Below the pieces are notes generated by a model. It was not told the origin of the DNA. It searched no databases and saw only the letters and a list, made by a program, of their open reading frames with translations. A DNA stretch of 47,105 bases, from NCBI GenBank assembly GCA_016867035.1, contig VGKO01000002.1, positions 1 through 47,105 of the forward strand, written 5' to 3'. The position numbers and the translations under genes were made by a program. The first letter of the stretch is position 1; every line of letters starts with the position of its first letter. The stretch comes from Candidatus Pacearchaeota archaeon. GTDB taxonomy: Archaea; Nanobdellota; Nanobdellia; Pacearchaeales; GW2011-AR1. Positions 5,163 through 44,340 of this stretch are shown here, piece after piece.

Positions 5163-6968
5163 TTAAGAACTTATCTCAAAATCACCGAACTCTTTTCTAA
5201 GAACTTCTAAGTCGTTTGAACTTAATTTTGAAGGGGTCTTTTTTTGACTATATAATACTCCTTCCAACTCCTGTTGATTAGACTCCTCAAGTTTATTTCC
5301 CTTAATTTTTAATATTTTATTATCTGCAAACACAAAAACAGGGTTAGTTAAGAATACATCAGCATGCTTGCCTTTATCATAAAATAAGTGTAATTCTATC
5401 TTACTTATTTCAGCTATCTCACATCTCTGTCCGTATTCAACTAGTCTGTTAATTAAACTAGAAACATTCTTTCTAACATCTTCAATTTCATACTTAGTAG
5501 GTTTTTTCTTGCTAGCATATTTCTTTTTAGTATCAATTAATTCTTGTAACACTTGCAAATGCCTTGGTTCTGCTCTTCCTTTTTTAATAATTTCTTTTTC
5601 AAAGTCTTTTATAAGCTCTTCTTCTCTTTTATTTCCAAATAACCCCTTCATTATCTTAAAAACATTATCATAGGTTTCTTGAAGTGTTCTCTCCTGACTT
5701 CTCTTCTCGATTTCAGTAGCAACTTCCTTAAGTTTTTTAGTGTATTCTTCCGCGTCTTTCATTAATTCATCAACTTCTTTTCCAGAAACTTCTTTAATTT
5801 TGCCGTGCTCAAAACCTTTGTAATATTGAATAGCAATTTTATCTAAGATATCAAGGTATTTCTTTTCCATCATCTTCTCTTGATCTACAAGGATTCTCTT
5901 TACTTCTTTAACAGTCTCATAAACATTTGGGGGTGGAATTCCATATAGCATTAAAACTGCTTGAGTGGGGGTGATAATGCTCCAATACAAATCATTTAAA
6001 ACAATATCCATTAATCTTTGTTTAATAATCTCCTTGGTTTTGTCGCCCATGCTCATAAATCTATCAATAGCTTCAGGGCTAGGTTTGATTTTACCCATTT
6101 TTAATAAAAGCTTCCAAGGCAAGAATCCTCCGCGGTCATAAAGAGGTATTCCATCTCTAATAAAAGTGAATATAACAGGGCTAGCATCTTTAACATCTTC
6201 CCAGAACTCAGTCAGCAAATAAACCTGAGGTGATAATTTATTTTTTACTCCTGCTAATTCGCCGGCTTCAGCAACATATTGATAAATAATACCCCTAAGC
6301 TTCTCTTTTAACTCTAATCGAGACATTCTTTTTACATCAGTATCATCAATTATAATAAAAACATCAACGTCACTAGTATCTTTAGCCTCGCCTCTAACAA
6401 GCGAGCCACCAATAACATAACTATAAATATATTTCTCAAATTTTCTAAGAACAAGACTTTTGTGTATTTGTGCAACCCGAAGTGCTCCGAAGATACCTTT
6501 ATCATATAGAGGGTAACTCATCCCAATTGCTTCAACTAAATCCCATTTGCTATCCAGAGCATAGTTCCACAAGTCAACAGGTGTGATTAAATTAAGCCAA
6601 ACAGTAGGTTTAAGGTCTTTAACTTGTTTTATCAGGTCTGCTCTAATCTCATTAATCTGTTTAAAATTATCTTCAGGAATAATTACAGTTAAATGCATTG
6701 GTTTTGTTTTCTTCTCCTCCTCAGTTAAAGCAAGTTCTTCATCAAATCTATCGGCTGCTTGTGGGGGTATAATTCCCATTCCAAGAATAAAATTATGTTT
6801 TTTTAAAGCAGCTTTTTTGAATTCTTCAAGTTTTTCTTTGGTTTTATCTATTTCTTTCTTAGCTTTATCATCTAGCTGTGTTCCAGGTATCTTGGGAGCG
6901 TTTGGATCATAATTTATAGCAGGGCTTTTTAATTCATTAGAAAGATCGTCTTTTTTTGTAGGTTCCAT
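5163..6968 (-). CDS. Large nucleotidyltransferase-domain protein (Pol-beta superfamily) with helical C-terminal region
   Basis: GGSLVRGEAKDTSDVDVFIIID is a G[SG]-x9-12-DxD minimal-NTase motif. The C-terminal region contains RAEPRH (Rx4H, HEPN-like). The listed start at 6980 is TTG; the first ATG (MEPTKKDD) is at 6968. Confidence 0.6.
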   Translation of the reverse strand: MEPTKKDDLSNELKSPAINYDPNAPKIPGTQLDDKAKKEIDKTKEKLEEFKKAALKKHNFILGMGIIPPQAADRFDEELALTEEEKKTKPMHLTVIIPEDNFKQINEIRADLIKQVKDLKPTVWLNLITPVDLWNYALDSKWDLVEAIGMSYPLYDKGIFGALRVAQIHKSLVLRKFEKYIYSYVIGGSLVRGEAKDTSDVDVFIIIDDTDVKRMSRLELKEKLRGIIYQYVAEAGELAGVKNKLSPQVYLLTEFWEDVKDASPVIFTFIRDGIPLYDRGGFLPWKLLLKMGKIKPSPEAIDRFMSMGDKTKEIIKQRLMDIVLNDLYWSIITPTQAVLMLYGIPPPNVYETVKEVKRILVDQEKMMEKKYLDILDKIAIQYYKGFEHGKIKEVSGKEVDELMKDAEEYTKKLKEVATEIEKRSQERTLQETYDNVFKIMKGLFGNKREEELIKDFEKEIIKKGRAEPRHLQVLQELIDTKKKYASKKKPTKYEIEDVRKNVSSLINRLVEYGQRCEIAEISKIELHLFYDKGKHADVFLTNPVFVFADNKILKIKGNKLEESNQQELEGVLYSQKKTPSKLSSNDLEVLRKEFGDFEISS

Positions 6969-7068
6969 TTTTGTAATCAATAATTATTTGAGTTCTATTT
7001 AATTTGGTGATATAAATTATATAAATAAGTGTTTTGAAGCATATTTAAATCTAACTAAATCTAGAGTT

Positions 7069-7275
7069 TTAGCAATAATCCTGATACTTTATTTCTAAAG
7101 GAGGATCATAATACTTCCATTCCCTCTGTTTAGGACAAGAATTACCTTCTGTTAAAATAAAATAAGTAGCAAGTAATATTGCTGTTGGAATAATTATTCT
7201 TTTGCCTAAATCCCTAAATAGCGAAGCAACAACCTCAAGCCCTGACGAAGATTCTAAAAGACCTCGATCCCTCAT
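7069..7275 (-). CDS. Small hypothetical membrane protein
   Basis: ATG ORF 24 nt downstream of 7300..7896 on the same strand, with one hydrophobic segment (IIIPTAILLATYFIL). Confidence 0.35.
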   Translation of the reverse strand: MRDRGLLESSSGLEVVASLFRDLGKRIIIPTAILLATYFILTEGNSCPKQREWKYYDPPLEIKYQDYC

Positions 7276-7299
7276 ATAAATATTAATATCTCAAGGTTA

Positions 7300-7896
7300 T
7301 TAAGGGTTTACGTTTATGACTATGTTTGGCAAAGCTCTAACTCTTTTTGCTGCTACTTGTGCTTGCATACACGCATTAAAAAATAAATCAGTGGTTGCTT
7401 CTAATAATTTAAGATTTATTCCAAAATCAATTTCATCTCCCATTTTCAAAGGATTTGAACCAGTAGAACCCATGCCAATTACTCTATGTTCAAGATTCTC
7501 CCCCATATCCATTATAGCAATCTGAACTTGTCCTTGTTTATTTAAAACATAACCTGTTGAGTTGGGCGTGGTTGGAAAAAAAATTCTTTCCTTTCTTTTA
7601 AAAAAATATTTAATAAAGGCAGAGTTGCCATGAAAAGCAGTAGCGTCTCTTGATGTTAACCTGGCAGTTATTTTATAATAGTTCCGTATTCTTGAAAAAT
7701 TAACATTAATAGAATCAAAAGGTTCAGGCAATTCGGCAGGACCAAAACTAAAACCAAAACCAAATGCTTTGGGGGATCCTTCTTCGTCTTCTTCTTGTTG
7801 CCAAGCTTCTCTAGGTATGGCACCAGGCATTTGCAAAATTGGGGGTTTAGTCAAAGTTTTATAAGCATCCTCTGCGCCATTAATAACAATATTCAT
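7300..7896 (-). CDS. Hypothetical protein (198 aa)
   Basis: Long ATG ORF in an AT-rich (stop-rich) background. No recognised domain. Confidence 0.5.
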   Translation of the reverse strand: MNIVINGAEDAYKTLTKPPILQMPGAIPREAWQQEEDEEGSPKAFGFGFSFGPAELPEPFDSINVNFSRIRNYYKITARLTSRDATAFHGNSAFIKYFFKRKERIFFPTTPNSTGYVLNKQGQVQIAIMDMGENLEHRVIGMGSTGSNPLKMGDEIDFGINLKLLEATTDLFFNACMQAQVAAKRVRALPNIVINVNP

Positions 7897-13356: not shown

Positions 13357-13767
13357 TTATCTTCCTGTTCTCAAATAAGCTTCTGCTTCGTCTAGTTTAT
13401 TTTGAAGTGCAGGATTATCATATCTTCCCGCAATCTGTTCCATTCTTCTATAAGCATCAAGTCTCTCGAGTCTTCGAAGATTAAGCCCGGGGGCAATATT
13501 TCTTACAAGATCAAAATCCCTATAAAAAGTATTCATATCTTTAATTGTTTCTTGAACTGCCCTTCTAACTTTTGCTCTAATAGTAATAGGTTCTCTTCGC
13601 TTTCTTGAGGGTGCTACTTTTGGAAGAGTGTTCAAAGAGCGAATATATCCAAATCTTCTTCTAGCTCGCTCTCTAAAATAAGGATGCTCTGCAATTCTTG
13701 AAGGAGCAGTTGGATCTGCATTTATAACTCTAGTTAATAGATTAGTTGGTTCGGTTGATTTGCCCAT
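13357..13767 (-). CDS. Basic (Arg-rich) hypothetical protein (136 aa)
   Basis: ATG ORF with high R content (RERARRRFGY, SRKRREPITIRAKVRR). No recognised domain. Confidence 0.5.
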   Translation of the reverse strand: MGKSTEPTNLLTRVINADPTAPSRIAEHPYFRERARRRFGYIRSLNTLPKVAPSRKRREPITIRAKVRRAVQETIKDMNTFYRDFDLVRNIAPGLNLRRLERLDAYRRMEQIAGRYDNPALQNKLDEAEAYLRTGR

Positions 13768-13903
13768 TTTTACATAAATTTATGTAGCTATTAACTTTTA
13801 AAGATTGTTATTCACCAGCATACAAAACCCATGCCTTTAGAACCTTATAAAAAGATATTTAAATGGGTTTTTCCAATATAACCTATAAAAGATTTCAAAA
13901 AAG

Positions 13904-14420: not shown

Positions 14421-15584
14421 TTATTTACTCAATTTCTTAATTAATTCTGTTTGAGAAAGCATTTCTTCTTTTCCTGTTTTCATATCACGAAGCTTTAATT
14501 TCTTTTTCTTTATTTCATCCTCTCCTATAAATATTACTTTATCAATTAAATAAGCATTTGCATACTCAAGTGCCTTGCTAACTTTATTATACATAACAAC
14601 ACAAGAAAGATTATTTTCTCGTAGTTCTTCTGCAAGTTTTATTGATTCTTTATCCTGTCCAAGAGAAATAATCAAAGTTTGACTATTCTTATTTTTTAGT
14701 TTAGCTAATTGACTTAATCTCTCTAAGCCAAAACTAATCCCTGTAGATTGAGCTCCATTAAACATATAACTACCGCCACCGCAAACACTTTCTTTCATCT
14801 CAAGAGTTTTTACCTCGAAAACATTGGCGTTATAATAACTCAAACCCCTAGCAAGTGTTGGTAAAAAGTTTGTTTTAATTCCATAATTTGAACAGGCTTC
14901 TTTTAATTGCTGAACATCAGAGTAACTTGCATACTTTTCAAAATATTTTTCAGATTTCTTAAAAATATCAATCAGTTTTTCTGCCTTATATTTCTTCAAA
15001 TTATCTTTTACTTCTTTCTCCGAGAGCTTATCCAGCTTGTCTACTTCTTTTATAACCTCGATTCTATCCTTTTCTTTGATACCTTCAGATTCAAGAATTT
15101 CATTCATTAATCTACGACTATTAACATTAATAACTGCTTTAATTCCTAGCTCTTCCAAAATCTTTGAAGTTATAGCAAGTATTTCAGCATCATCTTTAAT
15201 ACTCGAGCCAATAATATCAATATCACATTGGGTAAATTGTCTAAATCTATTTCCAGTAGTAGGCTCGTCTCTAAAAACAGGGCCTATTTGATATCTCTTA
15301 TAAGGCAGTTTTTTATTTTGCATTAATCTTTTAAGCTGAAAGGTTAATTCATAACGGAGAGCAAGGTTTCTTTCACCTTTGTCTTTTAATCTAAATATAT
15401 CGCTAACAGCTTCATCATTAGAGTTATCTCCCCTGACAAATTCCTCATTTTCTATTATTGGGGCTTCAGCAGGTTCAAATCCAAATAGCTCAAAATTCTT
15501 TACAAGAATTTTGCGTATTTCTTCTCTTATCCTAGCTTCCTCGCCAGTATAATCTTTAAAGCCTTTTACACATTCGTTTGCCAT
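14421..15584 (-). CDS. hisS: Histidine--tRNA ligase (class II)
   Basis: RYELTFQLKR, YQIGPVFRDEPTTGNRFRQFTQCDIDIIG (motif 2 region), GGGSY...GISFGLERL (motif 3 region), and a C-terminal anticodon-binding domain. The listed start at 15593 is TTG; the first ATG (MANECVKGF) is at 15584, ~28 nt downstream of a TTTATAAAA box. Confidence 0.9.
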   Translation of the reverse strand: MANECVKGFKDYTGEEARIREEIRKILVKNFELFGFEPAEAPIIENEEFVRGDNSNDEAVSDIFRLKDKGERNLALRYELTFQLKRLMQNKKLPYKRYQIGPVFRDEPTTGNRFRQFTQCDIDIIGSSIKDDAEILAITSKILEELGIKAVINVNSRRLMNEILESEGIKEKDRIEVIKEVDKLDKLSEKEVKDNLKKYKAEKLIDIFKKSEKYFEKYASYSDVQQLKEACSNYGIKTNFLPTLARGLSYYNANVFEVKTLEMKESVCGGGSYMFNGAQSTGISFGLERLSQLAKLKNKNSQTLIISLGQDKESIKLAEELRENNLSCVVMYNKVSKALEYANAYLIDKVIFIGEDEIKKKKLKLRDMKTGKEEMLSQTELIKKLSK

Positions 15585-15624
15585 CTTTTTCAATCTATTA
15601 TAAGATTCCTCCTTTTATAAACAA

Positions 15625-15696
15625 AGCGAAAGGAGGGAGTCGAACCCTCGTCTCAAGAGCCACAGTCTCGCATTCTACCGTTAAACTACAATCGCC
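15625..15696 (-). tRNA. tRNA-His (anticodon GUG) with encoded G-1 and an atypical acceptor stem
   Basis: Manual fold: G-1, acceptor GCGATTG/CTTTCGC (5 Watson-Crick pairs plus two adjacent U-U mismatches), D arm GTTT-AACGGTA-GAAT, anticodon stem CGAGA/TCTTG with loop CTGTGGC, T arm GAGGG-TTCGACT-CCCTC, position 73 = U. Needs covariance-model confirmation. Confidence 0.7.
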
Positions 15697-15995
15697 ATAA
15701 CTACTTGTATTATATTTAATTAAAACAAAGGGTGATTTAAAAGGTTTGTTAAGTATCAATAATGTAGTTTTCTCTTTAGATAAACTAAAACCTTTTAAAT
15801 TTACATTAGAATTATTAAAAATTATCAAGTTAGAAGCCGAGCAAGAGGAGGCTTCGAAGCAGTTAAGCGAGCCAGTTGCTATTTTATTATTTGAAGAATT
15901 AAAGCTTAAGCTAGGGAAATCTGCCTGATTAGTGCCGACAACCTCTAACTTTAATTGCCATACTAAAAAAATAAAGCAGAGGTTTATAAATTTTT

Positions 15996-16004
15996 GCTTT
16001 ATTA
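15996..16004. repeat. Left target-site duplication (gctttatta)
   Basis: 9 bp identical to 20717-20725 and directly abutting the left terminal inverted repeat. Confidence 0.8.
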
Positions 16005-16026
16005 TGTATTGTTAAGTTAACGGGAG
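16005..16026 (+). repeat. Left terminal inverted repeat (tgtattgttaagttaacgggag)
   Basis: The reverse complement of 20695-20716 is tgtattgttaagttagcgggtg. The first 15 nt are identical; 20/22 overall. Confidence 0.85.
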
Positions 16027-16044
16027 TTTTCTGCTCAAAAAAAT

Positions 16045-16212
16045 TTAGTTCTTTTTCTTTTTTATAACTAAATTAGAATCTTTTATTTCTCCTTCTAGTT
16101 CTTGTCCAGTTTTCCAGTTGAGTTCTTCAAGCAGTTTAGAAGGTACTACAATCCAAAATTTCTCGTATTTCTCTCCTTTATACTCCCTGCTTATTTGAGA
16201 TTGTAGTTTCAT
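16045..16212 (-). CDS. AbrB/SpoVT-type DNA-binding protein (55 aa; below the ORF-track cutoff)
   Basis: Own translation: MKLQSQISREYKGEKYEKFWIVVPSKLLEELNWKTGQELEGEIKDSNLVIKKKKN. The VVPSKLLEELNWKTGQEL..LVI pattern fits a looped-hinge-helix (SpoVT/AbrB) domain. tttataaa box (16234-16241) 21 nt upstream of the ATG. Confidence 0.55.
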   Translation of the reverse strand: MKLQSQISREYKGEKYEKFWIVVPSKLLEELNWKTGQELEGEIKDSNLVIKKKKN

Positions 16213-16216
16213 AAAT

Positions 16217-16318
16217 GTTTTAGGTATCTATCCTTTATAAACTTTTAGGTGTCTAATTTTATCTACTTTAAAGTTACATTTTAGATACCGAAAGATTTAT
16301 ATAGTTTAGGTATCTAAA
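16217..16318. promoter_or_regulatory. Divergent promoter region with four copies of TTTAGGTATCTA-like motif
   Basis: ttttaggtatcta 16217-16230, ttttaggtgtcta 16243-16255, ttttagatacc 16279-16289 (inverted), tttaggtatctaaa 16305-16318. TATA boxes at 16234-16241 (abrB-like) and 16296-16303 (transposase) are each bracketed by two copies. Confidence 0.6.
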
Positions 16319-16324
16319 TATATT

Positions 16325-17233
16325 ATGGCAGAAAGAATAATATGCTCAAAATGTGAATCAGAAAAAATTAAGAAAGATGGAAAGAGAAAAACTGAAAATA
16401 AAGGTCTAATCCAGAGATATAAATGCCTTGATTGTAGAACAAGATTTGTCGTTGATGATGGTTTTTTTAGAATGAGAAACAGCCCATTAAAAATAACTCA
16501 AGCTGTAGATCTTTATTTTAGAGGAGCTTCCACTCGTGGAGTTCAAGGACATCAAGGAATGTTCTTCCCACATAATGCTTCTAATGTTTCTATTTATGCT
16601 TGGGTTTTGAAGTATAGTAAAATGATAAGCAAGTTCACAAATAAACTAAAGCTAAAGGTTGGATTTGAAGCACAAGTTGATGAGATAGAGTTTCACAGAA
16701 GAAAGTCGAGCAAAGCAAAATTAGGAACAGAGAAAAACTTCTTTATTGACTCTGTTTGCCCTCAAACAAAGTTTATGCTTTCTTCTGAATATATGAGAAC
16801 AAGAAGTTGCAGAGATATTAAAGCAGTTATTCAGCGAATAAAAGATAGGACAGATACACAAATTAAGATTATGACTACAGATGGTTGGAATGCTTACACA
16901 AATACTTTAAAGAAAGTTTATGGTTATAATAACAAGACAGGGAAATATAATGTAGTTCATAATAGGGTTGTAGTTTCAGAAGAACAAGGCAACTTTAATC
17001 ATCCTATTGAAAGATTACATAATAGTGTTAGAGCCAGAACAAAGGTAATGCGTGGTTTTCATGGCTCAATAAATTCTGCTAATGCTATCTTAAAGGGTTA
17101 TGAAATATTCTACAATTTCATAAACAAGCATCAAGCAATAGGAAAATGCCCTTATGAGTTGGCAACAGATCTTAAACTTACACAAAATAATAAGTGGATA
17201 GAACTAATAAAACTAAGTAAGACCTCTTTCTAG
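16325..17233 (+). CDS. DDE transposase, IS1-family-like (single ORF with N-terminal zinc finger and HTH)
   Basis: CSKCES...GK...QRYKCLDCRTRF resembles the IS1 InsA zinc finger (CPSCS...NGK...QRYLCSHCRKTW). QVDEIEF, MTTDGWNAY and IERLHNSVRARTKVMRGFHGS parallel InsB ADEQW, MTDGWPLY and [25 protein letters not shown]. IS6 cannot be fully excluded. Confidence 0.85.
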   Translation: MAERIICSKCESEKIKKDGKRKTENKGLIQRYKCLDCRTRFVVDDGFFRMRNSPLKITQAVDLYFRGASTRGVQGHQGMFFPHNASNVSIYAWVLKYSKMISKFTNKLKLKVGFEAQVDEIEFHRRKSSKAKLGTEKNFFIDSVCPQTKFMLSSEYMRTRSCRDIKAVIQRIKDRTDTQIKIMTTDGWNAYTNTLKKVYGYNNKTGKYNVVHNRVVVSEEQGNFNHPIERLHNSVRARTKVMRGFHGSINSANAILKGYEIFYNFINKHQAIGKCPYELATDLKLTQNNKWIELIKLSKTSF

Positions 17234-17272
17234 AACAACAAGGATTAAAAATAGCAGAATTCTAATTATTTT

Positions 17273-17995
17273 ATGCAACAAAAACGAGGGCAGGTTACAA
17301 TATTTATCATAATTGCGATTTTGATTGTAGCTGGAATTTTCTTATTTTTTTATGTGAAGAATAAAACTGCTTCACTTACTCCTACAATTCCTAGAGATAT
17401 TCAGCCAGTTTATGATTATTTAAACGATTGTTTTGAAGAAAAAGTCTACTCTAGTATTTATGAAATAGGACAATTTGGGGGCTACAAATCTCCCCCTAAT
17501 AATTCTTTAGATATAGGAATTCCGATTTATCTAGATAATCGTTTTAAGGAAATCCTCCCACTTAAAGAGATTGAAGTTCAACTCTCAGAAATAATTGAAG
17601 AAGAATTAAATAAATGTCAGCTTAATTTTAGTTCCATTGAAGTAAATAGGGGCGACCCAAAAATTAAAGTTTCTATTTTAAATAATCAAATAAGGGCTCA
17701 AATAGAATATCCCATAACCATAATAAAAAATGATGGCACATATCAACTTAAAAATTTTCCAGAAATTATTGCACCAATAAAATTTGGTTTGATGTATAGT
17801 TCTGGAGTATCCATAGTAGATTTACAAATTGCTAATAATGGAAGTTTATGTTTAACCTGTTTGCTAGACCTTGGAGAAGAGAATGATTTATCTATAAGCA
17901 CATTTGAATATGAAGAAGGAATTAACATCTTTAGCATAGCAGATAATAACCAAATAAATAATCAAACCTATGAATTAGTGTTTGCAACAAAATGA
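17273..17995 (+). CDS. Membrane-anchored protein with class III (type IV pilin-like) signal-peptide-like N-terminus
   Basis: MQQKRGQ-VTIFIIIAILIVAGIFLFFYV: a basic residue-Gly-Gln followed by a hydrophobic helix, as in archaeal prepilin-peptidase substrates. The rest is unassigned. Confidence 0.55.
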   Translation: MQQKRGQVTIFIIIAILIVAGIFLFFYVKNKTASLTPTIPRDIQPVYDYLNDCFEEKVYSSIYEIGQFGGYKSPPNNSLDIGIPIYLDNRFKEILPLKEIEVQLSEIIEEELNKCQLNFSSIEVNRGDPKIKVSILNNQIRAQIEYPITIIKNDGTYQLKNFPEIIAPIKFGLMYSSGVSIVDLQIANNGSLCLTCLLDLGEENDLSISTFEYEEGINIFSIADNNQINNQTYELVFATK

Positions 17996-19782
17996 AAAAG
18001 CTATTAATCCTATTTCTTTGTGCATTCATTTTTATTACCACTTCTTTTGCTATTGCCGAAGAAGCTCAACAAGAGATAACGATAATAAAAACTCAGCAAA
18101 ATATGCAACAGGTAATAGATGAAAATGCGAGGACGGTTACATATACCTTTACTTCAAAAGATAGTGCAATTTCATTAACAGAGAAAGACTTTTTTTGGAG
18201 TGTAAAACCTGAATCTCAAGAGAATAAGGCCTATATTAAAACAGATGATAAAGGCAATTTAATAGAAGCAGATTTAACTGCTTCTCAAACAACAACATGG
18301 ATTTTTGGGCAAGAAACTCTTAAAGTTCCAGAAGGAGCAAGAGTTCTCTACAAAGATGGAAAGCTTGAAATTTTTGGAAAAAAAGGAGAAAGTTTTAATT
18401 TAAAAGAGAAAGAAAAATCTGGTGCCGAAATTTTTCTTTTAGATAATAAAGGTATAAAAATAGAAGAAGGTCAGATAAAAGGAAATTTTAAATTGAAATT
18501 TGGCGATACTCCAATAAGTATTTCTGGTTTAAATGGTAAAGAAGGAAGTGTAAAATATACTCCAAGTCAGATTTTCCCTTCTTTTTATCTACAAAAAGGA
18601 TCTATGGTCTCTTATGAGGGGGCAAGGATATCTGTTTTGGAACAAAAAAATGAGGGGCTACTACTAAACGATTTAAATGGCAAATCAAAACAATTTTGGT
18701 CATCAGGAGAGCTTTCTTTAGATAGTGACGATTTAAATATAAAATTAGAATTTGATAAAAATAACCCTTGGGTAAAATCAGAGGATACCAAAGCGCTCTC
18801 TTTTGAGATTAATGATGCGCGTTTTTTAATCAATAGAAATTCGGAAATATCCTGTTATTTAGATTCTAAAACAGGTAGAATAACTGAAAAAAATGGTAGA
18901 CAATTATTTGAATATACTCCCTCTGGAATAAAGAATACTTTTATTCCTGGAGAAAAATTTTCTTCTATACCTTTCACAAGAAAAATAACCGGATTGATTT
19001 TATCTGATAAAGAATATACTCTACGTACAACTAGAGGAAAGCATGCAGATTCAATGAGTGGAGTTCGAAAAGATACTTATGCATCTCAAAAAGAATTTTT
19101 AGACTATATTAGAACTATAGAGGCAAAATTTCCTGGAGCTTCCAAAGAAGAAATAGTGACGGCTTTATTTCATGAAATATATAGCAATGTTTGGCAAAGC
19201 TCTAATGAGATGAAGGGTATACCTATTATTCATAAAAATGATGCTATTGGTTGGACAGATCTTTATTCTTATGCTAGATCTACTGAGGGGTCAAACGCAT
19301 TTGGAGAAGTTTATTCAAGATTTTTAGAAGATAATGGAAGAGAAATTAATGCAGGAATATTAAGAGAAAATGGTTTTTCTACGCCCGAACAAGTCACACT
19401 TCCAGATGGAAAATCTGTTAAAATAGCACATTTAGTCGCGGGTTTAACAGGACATGTATCTGGAAGAGAAAATGCTAAAACCCGAGGGGATAGTGAAAAA
19501 GAGGGGGTAAAAGAAGGGGCAATTTTATCTTATGCCATTACTGAAGGAGGAAATCTTTATGAGGTTTGGGATGAAGCTAAAAAGGGAGATAAAGGTGCAA
19601 TAAAAAAAGTTATTTCATTTATTAAGGAATATAGCAAGGATGAAGAAACAGGCCGATATCCTGCAAGTCAAAAAATGGCTGCCTTGTGGAGTGCTAAAGC
19701 AAAAGGACTGATAGATAAATACGATAAACTTTCAGATTTAATCAAAGCGATTTATGAACAGAATGGGTATACCCTTGAATAA
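17992..19782 (+). CDS. Large secreted hypothetical protein (596 aa)
   Basis: Start overlaps the previous stop (ATGA). N-terminal signal peptide MKKLLILFLCAFIFITTSFAIAEE. No recognised domain. Confidence 0.6.
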   Translation: MKKLLILFLCAFIFITTSFAIAEEAQQEITIIKTQQNMQQVIDENARTVTYTFTSKDSAISLTEKDFFWSVKPESQENKAYIKTDDKGNLIEADLTASQTTTWIFGQETLKVPEGARVLYKDGKLEIFGKKGESFNLKEKEKSGAEIFLLDNKGIKIEEGQIKGNFKLKFGDTPISISGLNGKEGSVKYTPSQIFPSFYLQKGSMVSYEGARISVLEQKNEGLLLNDLNGKSKQFWSSGELSLDSDDLNIKLEFDKNNPWVKSEDTKALSFEINDARFLINRNSEISCYLDSKTGRITEKNGRQLFEYTPSGIKNTFIPGEKFSSIPFTRKITGLILSDKEYTLRTTRGKHADSMSGVRKDTYASQKEFLDYIRTIEAKFPGASKEEIVTALFHEIYSNVWQSSNEMKGIPIIHKNDAIGWTDLYSYARSTEGSNAFGEVYSRFLEDNGREINAGILRENGFSTPEQVTLPDGKSVKIAHLVAGLTGHVSGRENAKTRGDSEKEGVKEGAILSYAITEGGNLYEVWDEAKKGDKGAIKKVISFIKEYSKDEETGRYPASQKMAALWSAKAKGLIDKYDKLSDLIKAIYEQNGYTLE

Positions 19783-19839
19783 AAATATGGATTTATCACT
19801 CCAGAAACCTTTGATAAAATTGTTTTAAATGAAAATTAG

Positions 19840-20586
19840 TTATCTAATTCTTCTATAAACCGCAGGTCCAACTCTTTGAAGATGTGCGAATCTTGGATTA
19901 TCTTTAACAATTTTTGTTGTTCCAATAACTCCTCTTGAATCTCCAATATCTCCGCTAGAGTGCATAAAGATGATTCCTCCATCTTTTAAGGTTCTTGTAG
20001 TTAAATCATATGCAACTTTTTCTCCTTCTGAACCCAGATGAGTTATTACATGATTAAAAAATATTACGGGGTATTGGGCCGTAGTTTCTCTGATAAAATC
20101 TTGAACTCTTGTTGAAAACTTTCCTCTTTGAATTGCTTCTTGAACGTGTTCTATAACTTCTTGAGAGAAACGATATTCTCCATCTTTCAATTCAAAACCA
20201 GTTGGATAATCATTTACAAAACTAGGTTTTAAAGGATGTCTAGGTAGCGTTCTCTTTTGTTCTTCTGTTAGAAATATTCCTCCAAGAGGGTTTCTTTCAG
20301 GACCATAGCCCTCGCCCAAAGAATAAATAGGGGATATTTCTTCAAAAGGTCTTAATTCTACTAAGTCTAATTTTAACAAATCGCCCAAGCTTCTTCTACT
20401 TGTTTTTGCAGTTTCTGCACCCGTAGCAAGTATGGATAAAGGTTCTTCCAAATTTCCTATGCCAATAACTAAAGCAGTTGTTAATCCTTTGGTCTGTTCT
20501 AAATAATTTCTTAAAATACTATAATCCGATTTATGTCTAAAAAAATTTGACCTATCTATTGCGGATATTCTTGAATAATCTGTCAT
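19840..20586 (-). CDS. Hypothetical protein, possibly Rossmann/class I methyltransferase-like
   Basis: ALVIGIGNLEEP, LDLVELRP, PVIFFNHVITHL and LKDGGIIFM loosely follow methyltransferase motifs I, II, IV and post-IV. Weak assignment. Confidence 0.5.
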   Translation of the reverse strand: MTDYSRISAIDRSNFFRHKSDYSILRNYLEQTKGLTTALVIGIGNLEEPLSILATGAETAKTSRRSLGDLLKLDLVELRPFEEISPIYSLGEGYGPERNPLGGIFLTEEQKRTLPRHPLKPSFVNDYPTGFELKDGEYRFSQEVIEHVQEAIQRGKFSTRVQDFIRETTAQYPVIFFNHVITHLGSEGEKVAYDLTTRTLKDGGIIFMHSSGDIGDSRGVIGTTKIVKDNPRFAHLQRVGPAVYRRIR

Positions 20587-20694
20587 AAAAAGAGTAATTT
20601 TAACACCATTATAAACCTTTCTATTTATAACTACTTAATAGTGATTAATTATTTATAAAATTAAGTTACTCTCTCTTAACAAACCCCCTTTCAG

Positions 20695-20716
20695 CACCCG
20701 CTAACTTAACAATACA
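20695..20716 (-). repeat. Right terminal inverted repeat
   Basis: cacccgctaacttaacaataca, the reverse complement of the left IR (20/22). Confidence 0.85.
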
Positions 20717-20725
20717 GCTTTATTA
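20717..20725. repeat. Right target-site duplication (gctttatta)
   Basis: Identical to 15996-16004 and directly abutting the right IR. Confidence 0.8.
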
Positions 20726-20890
20726 TATAATCTAAAATATATTCTAAAGAACATATTTGCTTTAAAACAAGGTTTTTTTGCTCTTCTCATGCCAAAAGAC
20801 ATAACAATACAACTAACGCCCGACGGGTTTGGTTTAGTTCCAGAAGAAGTAGCACTTAGTGTAAAAAGATTTCCAAGTTACGAACAATGT

Positions 20891-20899
20891 CCCCCCCCC
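20891..20899 (+). repeat. Poly-C tract (C9)
   Basis: Nine consecutive C in an AT-rich sequence, positioned exactly at the frame junction of the two ORFs. Confidence 0.95.
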
Positions 20900-21102
20900 A
20901 TATAGGCGGAGAGTTGAGTTGGGAAGATGCTGAAAGAGTAACTAGATTAATAAAAAAAGCCAATCCCAAAAGAGTAGTTGTTGAAAGATATGCAAGAACC
21001 CGATGCCCACATACTGAATGCGCTTATAGAATTGTTGAGGAAAATCAAGACAATCCTAAAGAAACCCAAGCTTATTGTACCTGTTTAGATATTGTTGTTA
21101 AA

Positions 21103-21156
21103 GCTAAAGAAGCTAAAGAAGCTCAAGAAGCTCATGAAGCTCAAGAAGCTAAAAAA
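21103..21156 (+). repeat. In-frame 9-bp tandem repeat (6 units, gct-Naa-gaa)
   Basis: gctaaagaa gctaaagaa gctcaagaa gctcatgaa gctcaagaa gctaaaaaa encodes the (A-K/Q/H-E)n repeat AKEAKEAQEAHEAQEAKK. Confidence 0.9.
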
Positions 21157-21372
21157 ACAATTAATAGAAAACAGAGGGTAGATTAATAATTATAATGCGC
21201 AGGAGCCATAATCTATACTAAATTTTAGATAAAATTTTAAATAAAACTTAAAATTAAGGCTTTTCTCTGCGACTTTTTTTATTTGAATATAAAAAACGGA
21301 GCCATAATCCATTCGGAATAAAGCCATACCCGCTAAAATCTTATTTTACTTATTGAATATGATTAATTGCAG

Positions 21373-24033: not shown

Positions 24034-25512
24034 CTAGCTTCTCTCTGCGCTCTCTACTTTTTGTATGGCTGTCTTGTTTTTCTCAAAGAACTCGATTGCT
24101 TGTGCTAATTCCTTTTTATCCTTGGCTTTGGCATATTTATGAATCTCAATTTTCTTAGTATAAGCCTCACAAGCTTGTATTAATGCTTTAGCTCCTGCTT
24201 TAGTTCCTTTTGGGTGTGCGTGCACTCCTGCACCCATTGTCGTAATAAAATCAGTATTACCCATAATTTCAATAAAAGGTTTAAGTAAAGTAGGATTTAG
24301 TCCTCCCGAGATAATAGGACAACATTTTTTAACAACTCTCCAATTATCTGTTTCATGAAAAACATGGTGGGCATGATCTTCATGCGCTAGTTTTATTATA
24401 TCTGAATCATTTTCAGAAACTTTAGCCCAATTCTGACTAAAAAAATGCCCTTGTGCTGAAAGCTGAAGTATACTTTTGGCTGCAGTAACGTCTTCTTCAG
24501 GAGAGCCCGCCATTTTTCCAACCCCTGCTGTTCCTGTATGTATTCCTGATGCTCCTGCAAGTCTAGCGAACTTAGAAAGGACAAGCACAGAAAATCCAAA
24601 AGGATTTTCTTTTCTAGTATACGCTCCATGACTAGCTCTATGAAAGTGAATAAAAACATCAGGATACTTTCTTCTTAAGGTTTGAACAGCCATCCAACCT
24701 GCTGTAATTCCGTCTATTAAAAAAGCATAACTGCCTTTTTCAAAACCAGCTTTGAGAATAAGCTCGCATCGCTTTATCATGGTTTCATAGTCAGGAGCAG
24801 AAACATTAAAAGAATGAACTTTTTTCTTGCCTGTTTCTTTTACAGCCTTATCCATGGCTTTTTTTACATACTTAACCATTAATTCATATTGACAAAAATC
24901 CTGGTCTGCCTGAGGTTCATCATTTTTAACAAAGTCACCACCGCCACTCCAGAAATCATAACAAACTTCAGCGTATTCTGCGGCAGTTAATCCAATTTTT
25001 GGTTTAATAATTGTTCCAAGAATAGGTCTTTTATACACTCCCAGGTATTTTCTCATATCATCAATAGTATAACTTGGGCCATCATAATGCTCGAGCATTT
25101 GAGAAGGAAACCAAACATCAAGTAGTTTTAAAGCAGAAACTTCTTTCATACCCAAAACATTTCCAACAATAAAAGTAAGAATATTCTGAACATTCGAGCC
25201 CCTGTCAAAAATTCTCCAAGGATAAGCCACCCAAACCAAATTATTTTTTAAATCAATTTTATAAACCAGGGCATTAAGTTTTCTAGAAAAAGCAGTCTCG
25301 GTTTTAACAGCAAAATTAGTTCCTGTTGAGGATTCAGCAGCAACTTCGCAAGCAGCCTGAAGCATATTTAGAACTTTTCCGGGAAGTAAATGAAAAACAG
25401 TAAGCAAATACTCCCCGTTCTTTGGATTTTCAAGTCCAAGATTACAATAAGCAAGCTGATGTGAATTCAATGTCTTCACAAGCTTCTCAATCTCCCCTTT
25501 TTTTTCTTTCAT
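24034..25512 (-). CDS. rbcL: RuBisCO large subunit, archaeal form III or II/III-like
   Basis: GTIIKPKIGL, GGGDFVKNDEPQ (carbamylated Lys region), HFHRASHGA, GIHTGT, SGGLNP: catalytic residues appear intact. 492 aa, no small subunit nearby. Confidence 0.9.
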   Translation of the reverse strand: MKEKKGEIEKLVKTLNSHQLAYCNLGLENPKNGEYLLTVFHLLPGKVLNMLQAACEVAAESSTGTNFAVKTETAFSRKLNALVYKIDLKNNLVWVAYPWRIFDRGSNVQNILTFIVGNVLGMKEVSALKLLDVWFPSQMLEHYDGPSYTIDDMRKYLGVYKRPILGTIIKPKIGLTAAEYAEVCYDFWSGGGDFVKNDEPQADQDFCQYELMVKYVKKAMDKAVKETGKKKVHSFNVSAPDYETMIKRCELILKAGFEKGSYAFLIDGITAGWMAVQTLRRKYPDVFIHFHRASHGAYTRKENPFGFSVLVLSKFARLAGASGIHTGTAGVGKMAGSPEEDVTAAKSILQLSAQGHFFSQNWAKVSENDSDIIKLAHEDHAHHVFHETDNWRVVKKCCPIISGGLNPTLLKPFIEIMGNTDFITTMGAGVHAHPKGTKAGAKALIQACEAYTKKIEIHKYAKAKDKKELAQAIEFFEKNKTAIQKVESAERS

Positions 25513-25558
25513 TTTCCCCTCTTTATCTATATTAGAAATCTAGATTTAAATACCTTGC

Positions 25559-40703: not shown

Positions 40704-40734
40704 AAGTTTTAGGGAATAATAGTATATGATTTAC

Positions 40735-43550
40735 AAATGTGGCTTTTAGTAGTTGCATGCTGAAATCCTCGGGTTCTTGGATCTTACACATCAACTCTAT
40801 CAACGCTATCTTTTATAGCGGCCTATATTGTCTCGTCTTGCGGATGACTTCGTGCTTAGATGCTTTCAGCACTTATTCAATAATGCGTGGCTGCGCAGCC
40901 TCCCCATGAGAACTGCTAAACTAGAGGCATCCAAACGCGGTTCCTCTCGTACTACGCGTTCGTTCCACTCAAACAATTACGCACCTAACAGATATCATAC
41001 AAACTGTCTCGCGACGTTCTTAACCCAGCTAACGATTCCTTTTAACGTGTGAACTCCAACACCCTTGGCTGCTTATGCACAGCCAGGATAGGAAGAGCCG
41101 ACAGCGGCGTAGCAAGCCGCGCCGTCAATATGAACTATCGGGCGCGACAACCCGGTTATCCTTGGGGTACCTTTTCTGTCACAATTGGGATCCATTAAAA
41201 ATCCTCAATGGTTCGCTAGGCCCATCTTTCAATTCTGCAATTCGTGCTGTTTGAAGTACAGTTAGACAAGCTTTTACCCTTACGCTCTACTCTAGATTTC
41301 CGACCTAGATGAGCTTGTCATTAGGCCCTGCCGATATCTTTTCAGCAGGGTGCCGCCCCAGCCAAACTACCCGCCTGATGTTGTCCTTTGTTCAAGTAAG
41401 CAGCTTCATAAACGATAAGTAGTATTACAATTTCGCTCCACCAAATCCAAAAATTTGGTATCGACGCTCCTACTTATTCTATGTATCATCAATAAAGTCG
41501 CAGCAACAAGTTGTAGTAAAGGTCCACAAGGTCTTAGCTTCCCGTTAGGTGACACTGGCCTTTTCACCAGTAGAGTATGTTCAGAGGTTTCCGACTAGGG
41601 ACAGTGACAATTTCGTTGGACCATTCATGCAAGTCGCCATTCAGACGACAAGGTATTACGCTACCTTAAGAGCCTCAGGAATTAGGCCCGCCGTTTGATG
41701 GGCGTTAGCCGCGTTGGAACGCGGTTTTAGACACCACCACTGGGCAGGTTTCACCGGTTATACACATTCTTTCGGATTAGCAACCGGCTACGTTTTTGCT
41801 AAACAGTCGAACCATCCTTGTTATTGAAATCTAACAATGCACTCTAATATCAAGTACAAAGTTAGACGCCCCTTCTACCGAAGTTACAGGGCTAATTTGC
41901 CGAATTCCCTTAGTTGGATTAAACCTTCATGTCTTAGCCTTCTCAGCTAGAGCACCTGTGTTGGATCTAGGTACGAGTCAATAAATTCTAGACATATTGT
42001 TTTCACGGGCTCCAGAAATCAGCCATTTTCATTATACAAATTCTTTCACTTCTTATCATTACGATCCATGAAATCTTTATATAAGCTTCCTCTCGGAAAC
42101 TTGCTTATCCCGAAGCGTATATGTCATCGAACAAATTTATTGAGTACAGGAATATTAACCTGTTTTCCATCGATGTACTCGATTAAGGTACACCTTAGGT
42201 CCCGACTAACCCTTGGCTAATTGTTATTGCCGAGGAAACCGTGCTCTTTCGACATTTTTCGATTCTCAGAAAAATTAGATCTTACTGCTACCAAGATTCT
42301 CATTCCTTCCCGCTCCACTCCTTCTCTCGAAGAAGCTTCTGTGCAGAAAAGACGCCTATTTACCGCAATGCTACAAGTAGCATGCCTACAGTATCGGTAT
42401 TATGTTTGAGCCCCGTCCACTTTCGGCGCTTCGAATCTCGATGGGTGAGCTGTTACGCTTTCTTTAAATGGTGGCGGCTTCTATGCCTACATCCCCACTG
42501 TCTCAGATTCAAAACTTCCTTTGTTACACTTAACATAAATTTTGGGACCTTAACTGTAGTCTCCATTGTTCTGGTCTTGTGAAAGCACCTTACGCGCAGA
42601 CACTGATTCCCATATTTTAGAGCCAACAAATTCTGAGTTGGAAAATTTTCCGTAGGAAAAATCCTCTGCGAAAATTATCCGTACTTTACCTCGTTGGCAA
42701 ACTGTTATATGAGACTATACGGAGGTATATTTCAATAGGAACAAGCCATCGCCAGATTAGATAGGCTTTTCACCCCTAATCACAGGTCATCCAGGTACAT
42801 GTACATAACATTAGTTCGTACTTCCATTCCCCTTTCGAAGAACTTCACACTGCCCATGAGTAGATCATCTGGCTTCGTGTCTTATCCAAGTGACTCTCGC
42901 CTTTTCAGACTTGCTTTCGCTTTGGCTTCATTAATTTAACCTCGCCACTTAGATAAACTCCTTGGCCCGTTTTTCAAAACGTACGTTACAAACTTACATC
43001 CTCGTTGAGGAGCAGCCCGTAACAAGCTGTAACTGTTAGATTTCAAGTCTTTTAACTCTCGATTAAGAGTACTTTTCAGCTTTCCCTCGCGGTACTATTG
43101 CGCTATCGGACTTAAGTTTATATTTAGGGTTAGCACTTAATTGTGCTGTATTCATACGTCCAATCCGGGACGCACTACTCGTCGAAGAACGACATATTAA
43201 CTTCATCTACGGGACTATCACCCTCTAAGGTCCTTCTTTCCAGAAGAGTTTGATTCATTAACTTAGCCATTTACCTTCACCACATCTCTGCCTAACTTTC
43301 GTCAGGAGATTCGGTTTGCCCTCTTCCCTTTTCGCTCGCTGCTAATAGGGGAATCATTATTTATTTTCTTTTCCTACCGGTACTGAGATGTTTCAATTCC
43401 CGGCGTGTGTTTGCATTTCTGCATATTCAAGTTTTCTCATTCGGAGATCTCAAGATCAAATTCTGCATGCGAATCCCTTGAGCTTATCGCAGCTTGCCGC
43501 GTCCTTCATCACAACTTAAACCAAGCTATCCGTCTAACAGTATAAACAGT
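40735..43550 (-). rRNA. rrl: 23S ribosomal RNA (ends +/-15 nt)
   Basis: The RC reads ...GGATAGCTTGGTTTAAGTTGTGATGAAGGACGCGGCAAGCTGCGATAAGC... at the 5' domain and GCTGAAAGCATCTAAGCACGAAG (RC of 40848-40870) near the 3' end. Ends were estimated from an 11-bp terminal helix (43549-43560 with 40724-40734). No intron-sized insertion apparent. Confidence 0.9.
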
Positions 43551-43617
43551 AAAATCATATATTTCTATTAATTCTCTATCATACTTCTTTGTCAAAAAAT
43601 TGTTTAAATTTTTTTAC

Positions 43618-43640
43618 TAAGACTTTCTTTCCTTCTGTTT
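43618..43640 (-). promoter_or_regulatory. 5' strand of the pre-23S processing stem
   Basis: taagactttctttccttctgttt pairs perfectly with 40681-40703. Confidence 0.7.
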
Positions 43641-43800
43641 CATCGATTGAATATAATGTTGTCGTAGTTAGTTTTCTTTCTAACCGTCATCAATCTCAAC
43701 TCCCTCCGCAATCTGTTTCATTTGCGAAGTTCATACGTTGTGGTTTTTATTTTATCTCGTTACCATGCGAGATTCAATTTTTGTTGAATGTGATTTGTGA

Positions 43801-44037
43801 TTATGCTCTAGGTTTTCTTGAACCATAAACTGTTTTAAATCTGTCTTTATTATCAACATAATGCTGGGTTTGAGCCAAATATTCTGCCAATGTTAAAGGC
43901 GTAGTTACTAATTCGCCTTGCCCAACTCTGAATCTAACAAATTCCCCATTAGAGGTTGCTATAAATACTTCGCTATGTCCTTCTGTAAAAGGAGCAGTTA
44001 CAATATTTATTATCCCTTCCAATATTTGTTTCTTCAT
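43801..44037 (-). CDS. Hypothetical 78-aa protein encoded in the tRNA-Ala/23S spacer
   Basis: ATG ORF on the rRNA strand with balanced, non-low-complexity composition (MKKQILEGIINIVTAPFTEGHSEVFIATSNGEFVRFRVGQGELV...). An open frame this long is unlikely by chance in stop-rich AT-rich DNA. No canonical promoter spacing or SD. Confidence 0.45.
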   Translation of the reverse strand: MKKQILEGIINIVTAPFTEGHSEVFIATSNGEFVRFRVGQGELVTTPLTLAEYLAQTQHYVDNKDRFKTVYGSRKPRA

Positions 44038-44071
44038 TTTCAGTTTTGTTTGTTTATTTAACCCTTGTCCA

Positions 44072-44142
44072 TGGACTTATCGGGAATCGAACCCGAATCT
44101 AATCGTTGCAAACGATCTATCCTACCATTGAACGATAAGCCC
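44072..44142 (-). tRNA. tRNA-Ala (anticodon UGC) in the rRNA spacer
   Basis: Manual fold: acceptor GGGCTTA/TAAGTCC with the G3-U70 identity pair, anticodon stem GATCG/CGATT with loop TTTGCAA, T arm TCGGG-TTCGATT-CCCGA, discriminator A. Confidence 0.9.
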
Positions 44143-44253
44143 TTAGGCCTCTCGCCCAAAAAGGGTTTTGTTTTTTGCTTAAAGATTTTCTAAATCTTTA
44201 TTAGACTCGCCCAGTACTTTTTTCCTGAGTTCCTCGTCTAATAAAATGTTAAC

Positions 44254-44269
44254 GATGTATGAGTAATCA
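44254..44269 (-). promoter_or_regulatory. Candidate 3' strand of the pre-16S processing stem
   Basis: gatgtatgagtaatca is the reverse complement of 45936-45951 (15/16). Confidence 0.5.
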
Positions 44270-44340
44270 ACAGATTTCTCTGTATTGAGTATAACTAATA
44301 ATTCCTCTGCTTGCACATATTCTCTTATAAAATAATTTAT

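Follow-up and report, generated by a model that had tools for sequence, protein, structure and literature searches.

Positions 16005 to 20716 of contig VGKO01000002.1 from a Candidatus Pacearchaeota archaeon, of which a stretch of 47,105 bp was analysed (the whole of this stretch is called the window below), very probably form an intact unit transposon ("transporter IS", where IS stands for insertion sequence) of a DPANN family that inserts upstream of putative promoters and carries exchangeable cargo, with an AbrB-like protein as its presumed repressor. Elements of this kind, transporter ISs or unit transposons, are already known; of wider interest are the habitual carriage of restriction-modification genes and the precise promoter-upstream insertion.

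In the mechanism that we propose, a transposase of about 300 amino acids (aa), encoded by a single open reading frame (ORF) and equipped with a zinc ribbon, a helix-turn-helix (HTH) and a DDE domain, would bind the 22- to 26-bp terminal repeats, and, as homology within the family suggests, would move everything between them, cutting the target with a 9-bp stagger. When 40 independent insertions were compared, the target proved not to be random: its 9 bp lie exactly 5 bp from a TATA-like octamer, on the transcription factor B recognition element (BRE) side of a putative promoter that points outward. The AbrB-like protein would repress its own gene and the transposase gene, judging from four operator-like repeats over the BRE and between TATA and start. 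Cargo is freely exchangeable, most relatives carrying DNA methylases or restriction-modification systems; the window copy has a two-gene operon, encoding a prepilin-like protein and one of 596 aa that is secreted, and an apparently captured chromosomal gene whose product has a predicted methyltransferase fold.

Ends, duplication and relatives of the element

The element is delimited by the following features, and its transposase is listed with them.

16005-20716: the element, 4712 bp, lying between 22-bp inverted repeats that match at 20 of 22 positions
15996-16004: left 9-bp target-site duplication, GCTTTATTA, directly outside the left arm
20717-20725: right 9-bp target-site duplication, GCTTTATTA, directly outside the right arm, a perfect copy
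16005-16030, plus strand: left terminal inverted repeat, TGTATTGTTAAGTTAACGGGAG(TTTT), with the 22-nt core at 16005-16026
20691-20716, minus strand: right terminal inverted repeat, TGTATTGTTAAGTTAGCGGGTG(CTGA) in the inward direction, with the 22-nt core at 20695-20716
16325-17233, plus strand: transposase, 302 aa in a single ORF, with a Cys4 zinc ribbon (C7/C10/C34/C37), an HTH and a DDE core (D119/D186/E229)

A repeat finder run on the window reported the inverted pair as 20 nt at 95% identity and listed the 9-bp duplication too. The 20-nt repeat core occurred only twice in the 47-kb window, both times at the element ends, and two or more core matches were obtained in 0 of 100 dinucleotide-preserving shuffles. 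G+C content within the element (0.29 to 0.34) was the same as in its surroundings, and five ORFs were found inside, of 55 aa (minus strand), 302 aa, 240 aa and 596 aa (all plus strand) and 248 aa (minus strand). Three independent assemblies, JGI 3300020603 and the Logan assemblies of SRR7052952 and SRR7990334, were 99.76 to 99.96% identical to the window; they were reached via the flanking and cargo proteins, an exact look-up of the window transposase having returned no record. Both junctions between repeat and duplication were present in two of the three, and the right junction only in that of SRR7990334 (L090). Because the junctions recur in three independent assemblies, they are not an assembly artefact, and the inverted repeat with abutting 9-bp duplication described in the initial annotation is real, confirmed by the sequence and by the independent assemblies, in which both were reproduced (fully in two, on the right side in L090).

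Homologs of the transposase were detected in a total of 933 cases, those with names belonging to Pacearchaeota, Nanoarchaeota or unclassified archaeal metagenome-assembled genomes (MAGs) and being annotated as IS1 or IS6 family transposases. A scan of one genome per species yielded 235 relatives, and among the 80 loci listed nearly all were in DPANN MAGs, with one record titled bacterium; a profile search of 1.8 billion cluster representatives returned 188 clusters (50% identity) at E ≤ 1e-30, Aenigmarchaeota included. As far as seen, the family is confined to DPANN, namely MAGs of Woese-, Pace- and Nanoarchaeota, with more distant relatives in Aenigmarchaeota.

At each locus the repeat core ATTGTTAAGTTAACGGG was sought on both sides of the transposase gene, and a repeat pair was found to flank a homologous transposase in 47 loci. 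A perfect 9-bp duplication in identical register (the terminus lying 3 nt before ATTGTT) was present in 41 of these 47, and three more had matches at 8 of 9 positions. The 47 elements were 1890 to 9244 bp long (median, 4087), so that the 4712 bp of the window element are typical; none was a bare IS of about 1.3 kb (0/47), and cargo stood to the left or to the right of the transposase. Among metagenomic relatives in which both ends are present, the closest (L008) is 5768 bp long, is flanked by the duplication CTATAATTT and has N6_Mtase, Methylase_S and GmrSD/HNH genes as cargo. Since these loci represent about 40 independent insertion events, they support the transposon reading, and with the repeat tied to the transposase in 47 loci it is not an unrelated, abundant intergenic family. 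The earlier proposal that a single transposition event moved transposase, regulator and three passengers as a unit is likewise borne out by the 47 loci built alike. The element is not a composite transposon, as it contains neither a second transposase nor an internal copy of the repeat; in the window and in the 47 relatives, passengers and transposase lie inside one repeat pair with the duplication around the whole, as in a transporter IS or unit transposon.

Several MAGs harbored two or three copies with differing cargo, such as JAHITZ01 (L031, L033 and L071). Contigs L013, L020, L035, L065 and L088 begin and end within about 60 to 140 bp of the two terminal repeats, as would be expected of a multicopy element that is assembled into a contig of its own; the 9-bp flanks of L035 differ from each other. 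Six contigs from sister samples (L001 to L006) with an identical 305-aa transposase (P0002) showed two left flanks and two downstream gene sets in all four combinations; this points either to several recent copies or to metagenome assemblies wrongly joined across the repeat into chimeras. The 8.3-kb element of L045 has one more repeat-like site, its third, ATTGTTAAATTAGCGAG (13411-13861), which is 445 bp inward of the right end, faces the right repeat and may mark a nested or adjacent miniature derivative resembling a miniature inverted-repeat transposable element.

An empty site of the window copy was not found: the reconstructed 24-mer ATTTTTGCTTTATTATATAATCTA gave a single match in the metagenomes, on contig L089, which we attribute to chance because that contig has nothing else in common with the window. 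Nor was presence/absence polymorphism seen, the same site being occupied in the window and in the three assemblies (4/4). This weighs against the proposed reading as far as present activity of the window copy is concerned. The same observations, together with the differences between the repeat arms at 2 of 22 positions, would suit a fixed relic that is no longer mobile and whose enclosed genes are now ordinary chromosomal genes. We hold such a relic to be distinctly unlikely, as the transposase is of full length, with all 75 residues that are invariant in the family still in place (among the invariant positions of the 44 aligned members, window copy included, are C7, C10, C34, C37, D119, D186 and E229), the duplication is perfect, the regulator and all four operator-like copies are intact, and a 96%-identical transposase occurs in another MAG with different cargo.

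The window element is thus a typical member of a large family of cargo-carrying transposons that is apparently uncharacterized. In the literature searched, we found no description of the family, of DPANN transposons carrying restriction-modification genes or of archaeal insertion referenced to TATA. DPANN archaea have tiny, gene-dense genomes and depend on hosts, and little is understood of how genes for defence and for the cell surface are gained and swapped among them. According to a survey of integrated elements in archaea from 2019, DNA transposons with passengers had not been detected in this domain (PMC6563490); set against that survey, such transposons are common in DPANN, and several copies with differing cargo can occur in one MAG.

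Target site

The window copy lies beside a putative promoter of the host, on the side away from which that promoter would fire.

15959-15995, minus strand: putative host target promoter, firing away from the element, with a TATA octamer at 15983-15990, a 5-bp BRE-like spacer at 15991-15995 (AAAAA) and an ATG at 15961-15959

Alignment of the reconstructed empty sites gave rrTTTATAAAnnTTT directly beside the duplication on one side. In 38 of the 40 insertions with enough flank to enter the target-site set, TTTAWAWA (at least 7 of 8 positions) was found exactly 5 bp outside the duplication on one side, compared with 2.7% of host positions overall and 4.3% of those between genes (binomial P about 1e-50). 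The peak consists of this single offset, offsets 1 to 2 bp away reaching at most about 5/45. The octamer was on the transposase-upstream side in 24 insertions and on the other side in 15 (one site counted twice). Read outward, the layout is duplication, AAAnn, TTTATAAA, 21 nt and ATG, and the target sequence can be written AAAnnTTTATAAA.

An ATG exactly 21 nt past the TATA was present in 20 of the 38 sites against about 0.6 expected, and 19 of the 20 open ORFs of at least 50 aa. In the window, too, no other spacing between TATA and ATG is as common (13 of 75 octamers), and the transposase, AbrB-like and 248-aa genes of the element have a TATA-to-ATG spacing of 21 to 22 nt of their own. Because of the ATG at +21 in 20/38 sites and the BRE-like AAA on the element side, the promoter is taken to point outward. 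A promoter firing into the element, with insertion between TATA and start, was ruled out, as few ORFs begin on that side. The insertions would then fall just ahead of the BRE/TATA that serves a leaderless gene, between about -43 and -35 relative to the gene start, and because the cut falls on the BRE side, upstream of TATA, both promoter and gene would stay intact. The initial annotation had regarded the sequence restored by removal of the element as plain intergenic; the spot is, on the contrary, immediately upstream of a putative promoter and of the type that the family specifically targets.

Some observations at the target sites pull in the other direction. The ATG 21 nt past the TATA at the window target opens 10 codons only, no TATA is present at two of the 40 sites (L064 and L001, each with repeats that match poorly or with an imperfect duplication), and the identity of the target as a promoter is a prediction from consensus and spacing. 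In the 265 nt between the target promoter and tRNA-His, no Rfam family and no unusual fold stability (z = -1.2) were found; the region at 15929-15995 could be a micro-ORF, an unknown RNA or a decayed gene.

A fixed distance to TATA might also arise by selection and not by mechanism, if elements landed at random and only insertions that spare genes and promoters survived. DPANN intergenic regions are short and filled with promoters, and 4.3% of intergenic positions pass the octamer test by chance. Such selection would, however, enrich intergenic sites generally and not one offset, and insertions farther upstream or downstream of genes, which would be equally harmless, were not seen. Because the sites share one offset, selection alone cannot give the exact register, and we consider it very improbable as the explanation.

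For promoter-upstream targeting as a property of the transposition machinery, it is possible, and we suggest it tentatively, that the transposase, or a complex of transposase and AbrB-like protein, is guided by the archaeal pre-initiation complex, with TATA-binding protein (TBP) and transcription factor B (TFB), bound to BRE/TATA and bending it, setting the 9-bp cut exactly one BRE-width upstream; direct readout of the DNA is the alternative. Insertion exactly 5 bp upstream of TATA would in any case be a rare example of a prokaryotic DNA transposon that takes a promoter as its point of reference, and it could explain, in a way open to testing, how elements of several kilobases spread through genomes that have hardly any DNA to spare. 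If guidance by the pre-initiation complex were true, this would be the first prokaryotic DNA transposon directed by a promoter complex, a functional analogue of Ty3/TFIIIB, and cassettes of restriction-modification and surface genes could spread through DPANN genomes of about 1 Mb with genes left unhit.

Regulator and cargo

The remaining features inside the window element are listed from left to right.

16045-16212, minus strand: SpoVT/AbrB (MazE-like) DNA-binding protein, 55 aa (PF04014, 25.3 bits versus 24.7; TIGR01439, E = 7.6e-4)
16213-16324: divergent control region, 112 bp, with TATA at 16234-16241 (AbrB-like gene, minus strand) and at 16296-16303 (transposase gene), each 21 nt from its ATG
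16219-16230, 16244-16255, 16282-16293 (inverted) and 16305-16316: four copies of the operator-like repeat TTTAGGTRTCTA (also written TAGGTATCTA)
17273-17995, plus strand: passenger 1, 240 aa, N-terminus MQQKRGQVTIFIIIAILIVAGIF, with a class-III (prepilin-like) signal motif KRGQ|VTIFIIIAILIV (KRGQ|VTIFIIIAILIVAGIF)
17992-19782, plus strand: passenger 2, 596 aa, with an N-terminal signal peptide, its start overlapping the stop of passenger 1
19840-20586, minus strand: passenger 3, 248 aa, predicted class I S-adenosylmethionine (SAM)-methyltransferase fold, nearest to CheR, with BRE/TATA at 20609-20616, 22 nt from the ATG

The score against PF04014 upholds the AbrB-like regulator of the initial annotation. 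An AbrB-like gene was present in 28 of the 47 elements, always adjacent to and divergent from the transposase gene, and others had in its stead a DUF2080 ("putative transposon-encoded protein") or ribbon-helix-helix gene. A toxin gene that would partner the AbrB/MazE-like protein was not found among the five ORFs of the element. Each of the two divergent promoters has one copy of TTTAGGTRTCTA over the BRE and one between TATA and start, and all four matches to this repeat in the 47-kb window fall within 100 bp of the control region. The repeat is kept in the closest relatives (L001 and L008), and other subfamilies have different repeat words at the same positions. Judged from this layout, the AbrB-like protein is the presumed repressor of its own promoter and of the transposase promoter. 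In L051, L053, L056, L068, L045 and L088 the transposase start lies 60 to 110 nt farther downstream, behind a G+C-rich leader hairpin (for example, GGGTGCGTGAACACCC) that is absent from the window copy and may provide additional translational or attenuation control.

The ORFs of the 47 elements were grouped into over 160 clusters. In 28 of the 47 (about 60%) there was a cluster represented by a DNA methylase or restriction-modification protein, a figure weakened by the way in which cargo was annotated, with the Pfam annotation of one representative extended to its whole cluster. The recurrent clusters were those for restriction-modification, and the cargo included the following.

13 elements: N6_N4 DNA methylase, in one case fused to Mrr_cat
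5 elements: N6_N4/UPF0020 methylase, with a MvaI/BcnI endonuclease in 3
4 elements: C5 cytosine methylase
3 elements: Type IIG/I N6_Mtase proteins, plus one fused M-S protein
2 elements: Dam-type D12 methylase with an unknown partner
L015 (9.2 kb): two radical-SAM enzymes, a GT2 glycosyltransferase, an aminotransferase and an oxidoreductase
L045 (8.3 kb): collagen-repeat, Laminin_G_3 and PRC-barrel proteins
L068: nuclease and CYTH genes

Because most members carry restriction-modification systems, the family is likely a main route for the movement of defence genes.

All three cargo proteins of the window element were singletons within the cluster set of the 47 elements, and PADLOC found no match to a defence model in this cargo except a marginal one to mad2. 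Since the start of the 596-aa gene overlaps the stop of the 240-aa gene, passengers 1 and 2 form an operon. The 240-aa protein had no Pfam or NCBIfam match; its class-III motif was read by eye, and its N-terminus is kept in L007 and L009. The 596-aa protein is a near-orphan, with four relatives in 5.8 billion sequences, and a search of PDB sequences with it gave nothing useful. For the 248-aa protein no family match was found at the sequence level (Pfam, NCBIfam and PDB sequences). An AlphaFold model built with 11 homologs reached a predicted local distance difference test score (pLDDT) of 84 (34 in a single-sequence run), and the top 10 PDB structure matches of this model were CheR methyltransferases (E down to 4e-8; TM score about 0.5). 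The predicted fold is that of a class I methyltransferase, by which the Rossmann-like protein of the initial annotation is specified further. Its family has 11 members, others of which occupy ordinary chromosomal settings beside aminoacyl-tRNA synthetase genes, and because these neighbourhoods contain no transposase, the 248-aa gene looks like a captured host gene.

Links to tRNA synthetases were seen at several places (L094/L096, the P0135 contig, L001 at 6482-7555 and the window at 14421-15696): in other DPANN genomes, homologs of the 248-aa protein are encoded beside the synthetases for arginine (ArgRS) or for glutamate/glutamine (Glu/GlnRS), the cargo of one related transposon includes a class I tRNA synthetase (tRNA-synt_1b), and the window element lies beside the histidine synthetase (HisRS) and tRNA-His genes. 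This may be coincidence.

The transposase 96% identical to that of the window is in L009, from another Woesearchaeota MAG. When positions 908-3886 of L009 were compared with 17273-19861 of the window, the two had in common approximately the first 55 codons of the prepilin-like gene and, behind the second cargo gene, 81 bp at the distal cassette end; between these flanks L009 holds an unrelated secreted pair of 340 and 645 aa with an HEAAH motif, versus the 240- and 596-aa pair of the window. The difference looks like the replacement of a cassette between conserved flanks. For the subfamily of the window, this swap agrees with the earlier idea that the transposon is a vehicle of surface variability; in the family at large, surface genes are exceptional and restriction-modification genes are usual.

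Some further features of the window lie outside the element. An archaeal 23S-tRNA-Ala-16S operon at 40726-45782 (minus strand) identifies the window as archaeal and accounts for the rise in G+C content at 41 to 46 kb. A gene for the RuBisCO large subunit is located at about 24040-25520, some 3.3 kb to the right of the element, as judged by correspondence with L091. A 9-bp tandem repeat at 21101-21156, within a 99-aa ORF (20887-21186), encodes (A/K)(K/Q)EA units. This ORF was called as 66 aa in L091, 93 aa in L092 and 99 aa in the window and L090, these being near-identical assemblies, and because of these differing lengths the repeat or the frame appears to be polymorphic in the population beside the transposon.

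Affinities of the transposase and comparison with known systems

The best curated match of the window transposase was the IS6 model NF033587, with 51.3 bits against a cut-off of 125 and an alignment covering profile positions 3 to 201 of 202; the IS1 model NF033558 scored 42.9 bits (E = 5e-11), below its cut-off of 100. All 44 aligned relatives matched the IS6 model (best, 3e-21), and 43 of 44 matched the IS1 model (best, 1e-14). The Pfam domain DDE_Tnp_IS240 (PF13610) was just at threshold (27.2 versus a cut-off of 27), as was NF050000, the IS1/IS1595 zinc domain (28.1 bits versus 28). By hhalign, the IS26 transposase aligned with 85% probability over 193 columns (HTH and core) and Escherichia coli InsA with 85% probability over 67 columns (zinc ribbon and HTH), whereas E. 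coli InsB reached 21% over 41 columns only, across TDGW...IER. In a tblastn search (1e-3) of 72,556 plasmids there was one weak match, annotated as an IS1 family transposase, and no copies of IS26 were matched; no relatives were found among the viral contigs of IMG/VR. With IMG/VR empty and only one weak match in plasmids, there is no sign of a viral or plasmid vector.

The ends were compared as well. The terminal consensus of 94 arms is T[GA][CT]ATTGTTAAGTTA (also T[GA][CT]ATTGTTAAGTTARCGGG). The right end of IS26, taken from a plasmid (L100), is GGCACTGTTGCAAAGTTAGCGATG, with the right repeat GGCACTGTTGCAAAGTTAGCG, and has the blocks AyTGTT and AAGTTAGCG in common with the window repeat TGTATTGTT-AAGTTAGCGGGTG. 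These shared blocks lie at a 3-nt offset, and the window repeat is without the terminal GG of IS6-type repeats (GGCACTGTTGCAAA). Taken by its sequence, the family is in our view a clade of its own, resembling IS1 at the front of the transposase and IS6 in the core and at the element ends.

The element could be a plain member of the catalogued IS1 family, in the archaeal ISMhu11 subgroup, and merely another copy; we regard this as possible and doubtful. As in IS1 (InsA/InsB of E. coli IS1A), there are an InsA-like zinc ribbon and HTH, which the initial annotation had recognized and which the hhalign and NF050000 results corroborate, the motifs TDGW and IER, and a duplication of 9 bp that is compatible with the 8 to 9 bp of IS1 and perfect at this length both in the window and in 41 of the 47 relatives; the sole plasmid match is also annotated as IS1. 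Unlike in IS1, the transposase here is one ORF without a frameshift, its D-to-E spacing is 43 residues, and the InsB-like motifs described earlier, present as they are, sit in a core weakly alignable to InsB. The family model was missed by a wide score difference (42.9 versus 100), with a best member weaker than for IS6, and the ends read T[GA][CT]ATTG, not GGnnnTG as in IS1. The ISMhu11 subgroup, reported to reach about 4.6 kb, may be represented by related entries in ISfinder; the literature search found no mention of ISMhu11. Even with the label correct, promoter-upstream targeting and restriction-modification cargo were not found described. The label "IS1-family" given initially is half right, because core and ends are nearer IS6/IS26 and both curated cut-offs were missed.

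That the element is instead a long, zinc-finger-bearing IS6 type, replicating via cointegrates like IS26 with cargo merely caught between its ends, seems to us rather unlikely. The IS6 model match and the IS240 domain, the alignment of the catalytic core to IS26 and the common end blocks would all fit. IS6 also includes zinc-finger clades and one transporter IS, ISDsp3, and its members make 8-bp target duplications (PMC7986276), compared with 9 bp in 41 of 47 elements here. The score is far under the 125-bit cut-off, the transposase has an extra N-terminal zinc ribbon, and tblastn at 1e-3 misses the thousands of IS26 copies on plasmids. Moreover, cargo in IS6 is carried in pseudo-compound transposons with two direct IS copies, whereas here, in the window and in all 47 relatives, there is one transposase with cargo within one repeat pair.

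As a distinct clade of transporter ISs, the family can be set beside several known systems. Other transporter ISs are found in the ISMhu11 group of IS1 and among several members of IS1595. Like such unit transposons, of which ISDsp3 of IS6 (PMC7986276) is one, the elements described here have one DDE transposase gene and one repeat pair, with the duplication round the whole and passengers within; they differ in that cargo is the rule (0/47 bare) and consists mostly of restriction-modification genes, that the hosts are DPANN archaea and that the insertion site keeps a set position relative to a putative promoter. Furuta et al. in 2010 (PMC2853133) described transposase-linked mobile units for restriction-modification, and these too have restriction-modification genes within inverted repeats and target duplications, beside a transposase; those are scattered bacterial cases, whereas here one archaeal family carries many unrelated restriction-modification types. 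With one transposase, 22-bp ends and a defined target, the family is a compact natural system and a candidate for targeted insertion in archaea.

For the position of insertion, the closest parallels come from eukaryotic retroelements: Ty3 inserts at RNA polymerase III (Pol III) start sites via TFIIIB, Ty1 and Dictyostelium TRE5 insert upstream of tRNA genes, and Tf1 inserts upstream of Pol II promoters. Like them, the family described here is inserted close to a putative promoter of the TBP type, at a constant distance and on the gene-sparing side, a "safe haven" in a compact genome. The difference is that Ty3, Ty1, TRE5 and Tf1 are retroelements whose integrases are tethered by known protein contacts, whereas here a prokaryotic DNA transposon is concerned, for which tethering by TBP/TFB is a hypothesis only.

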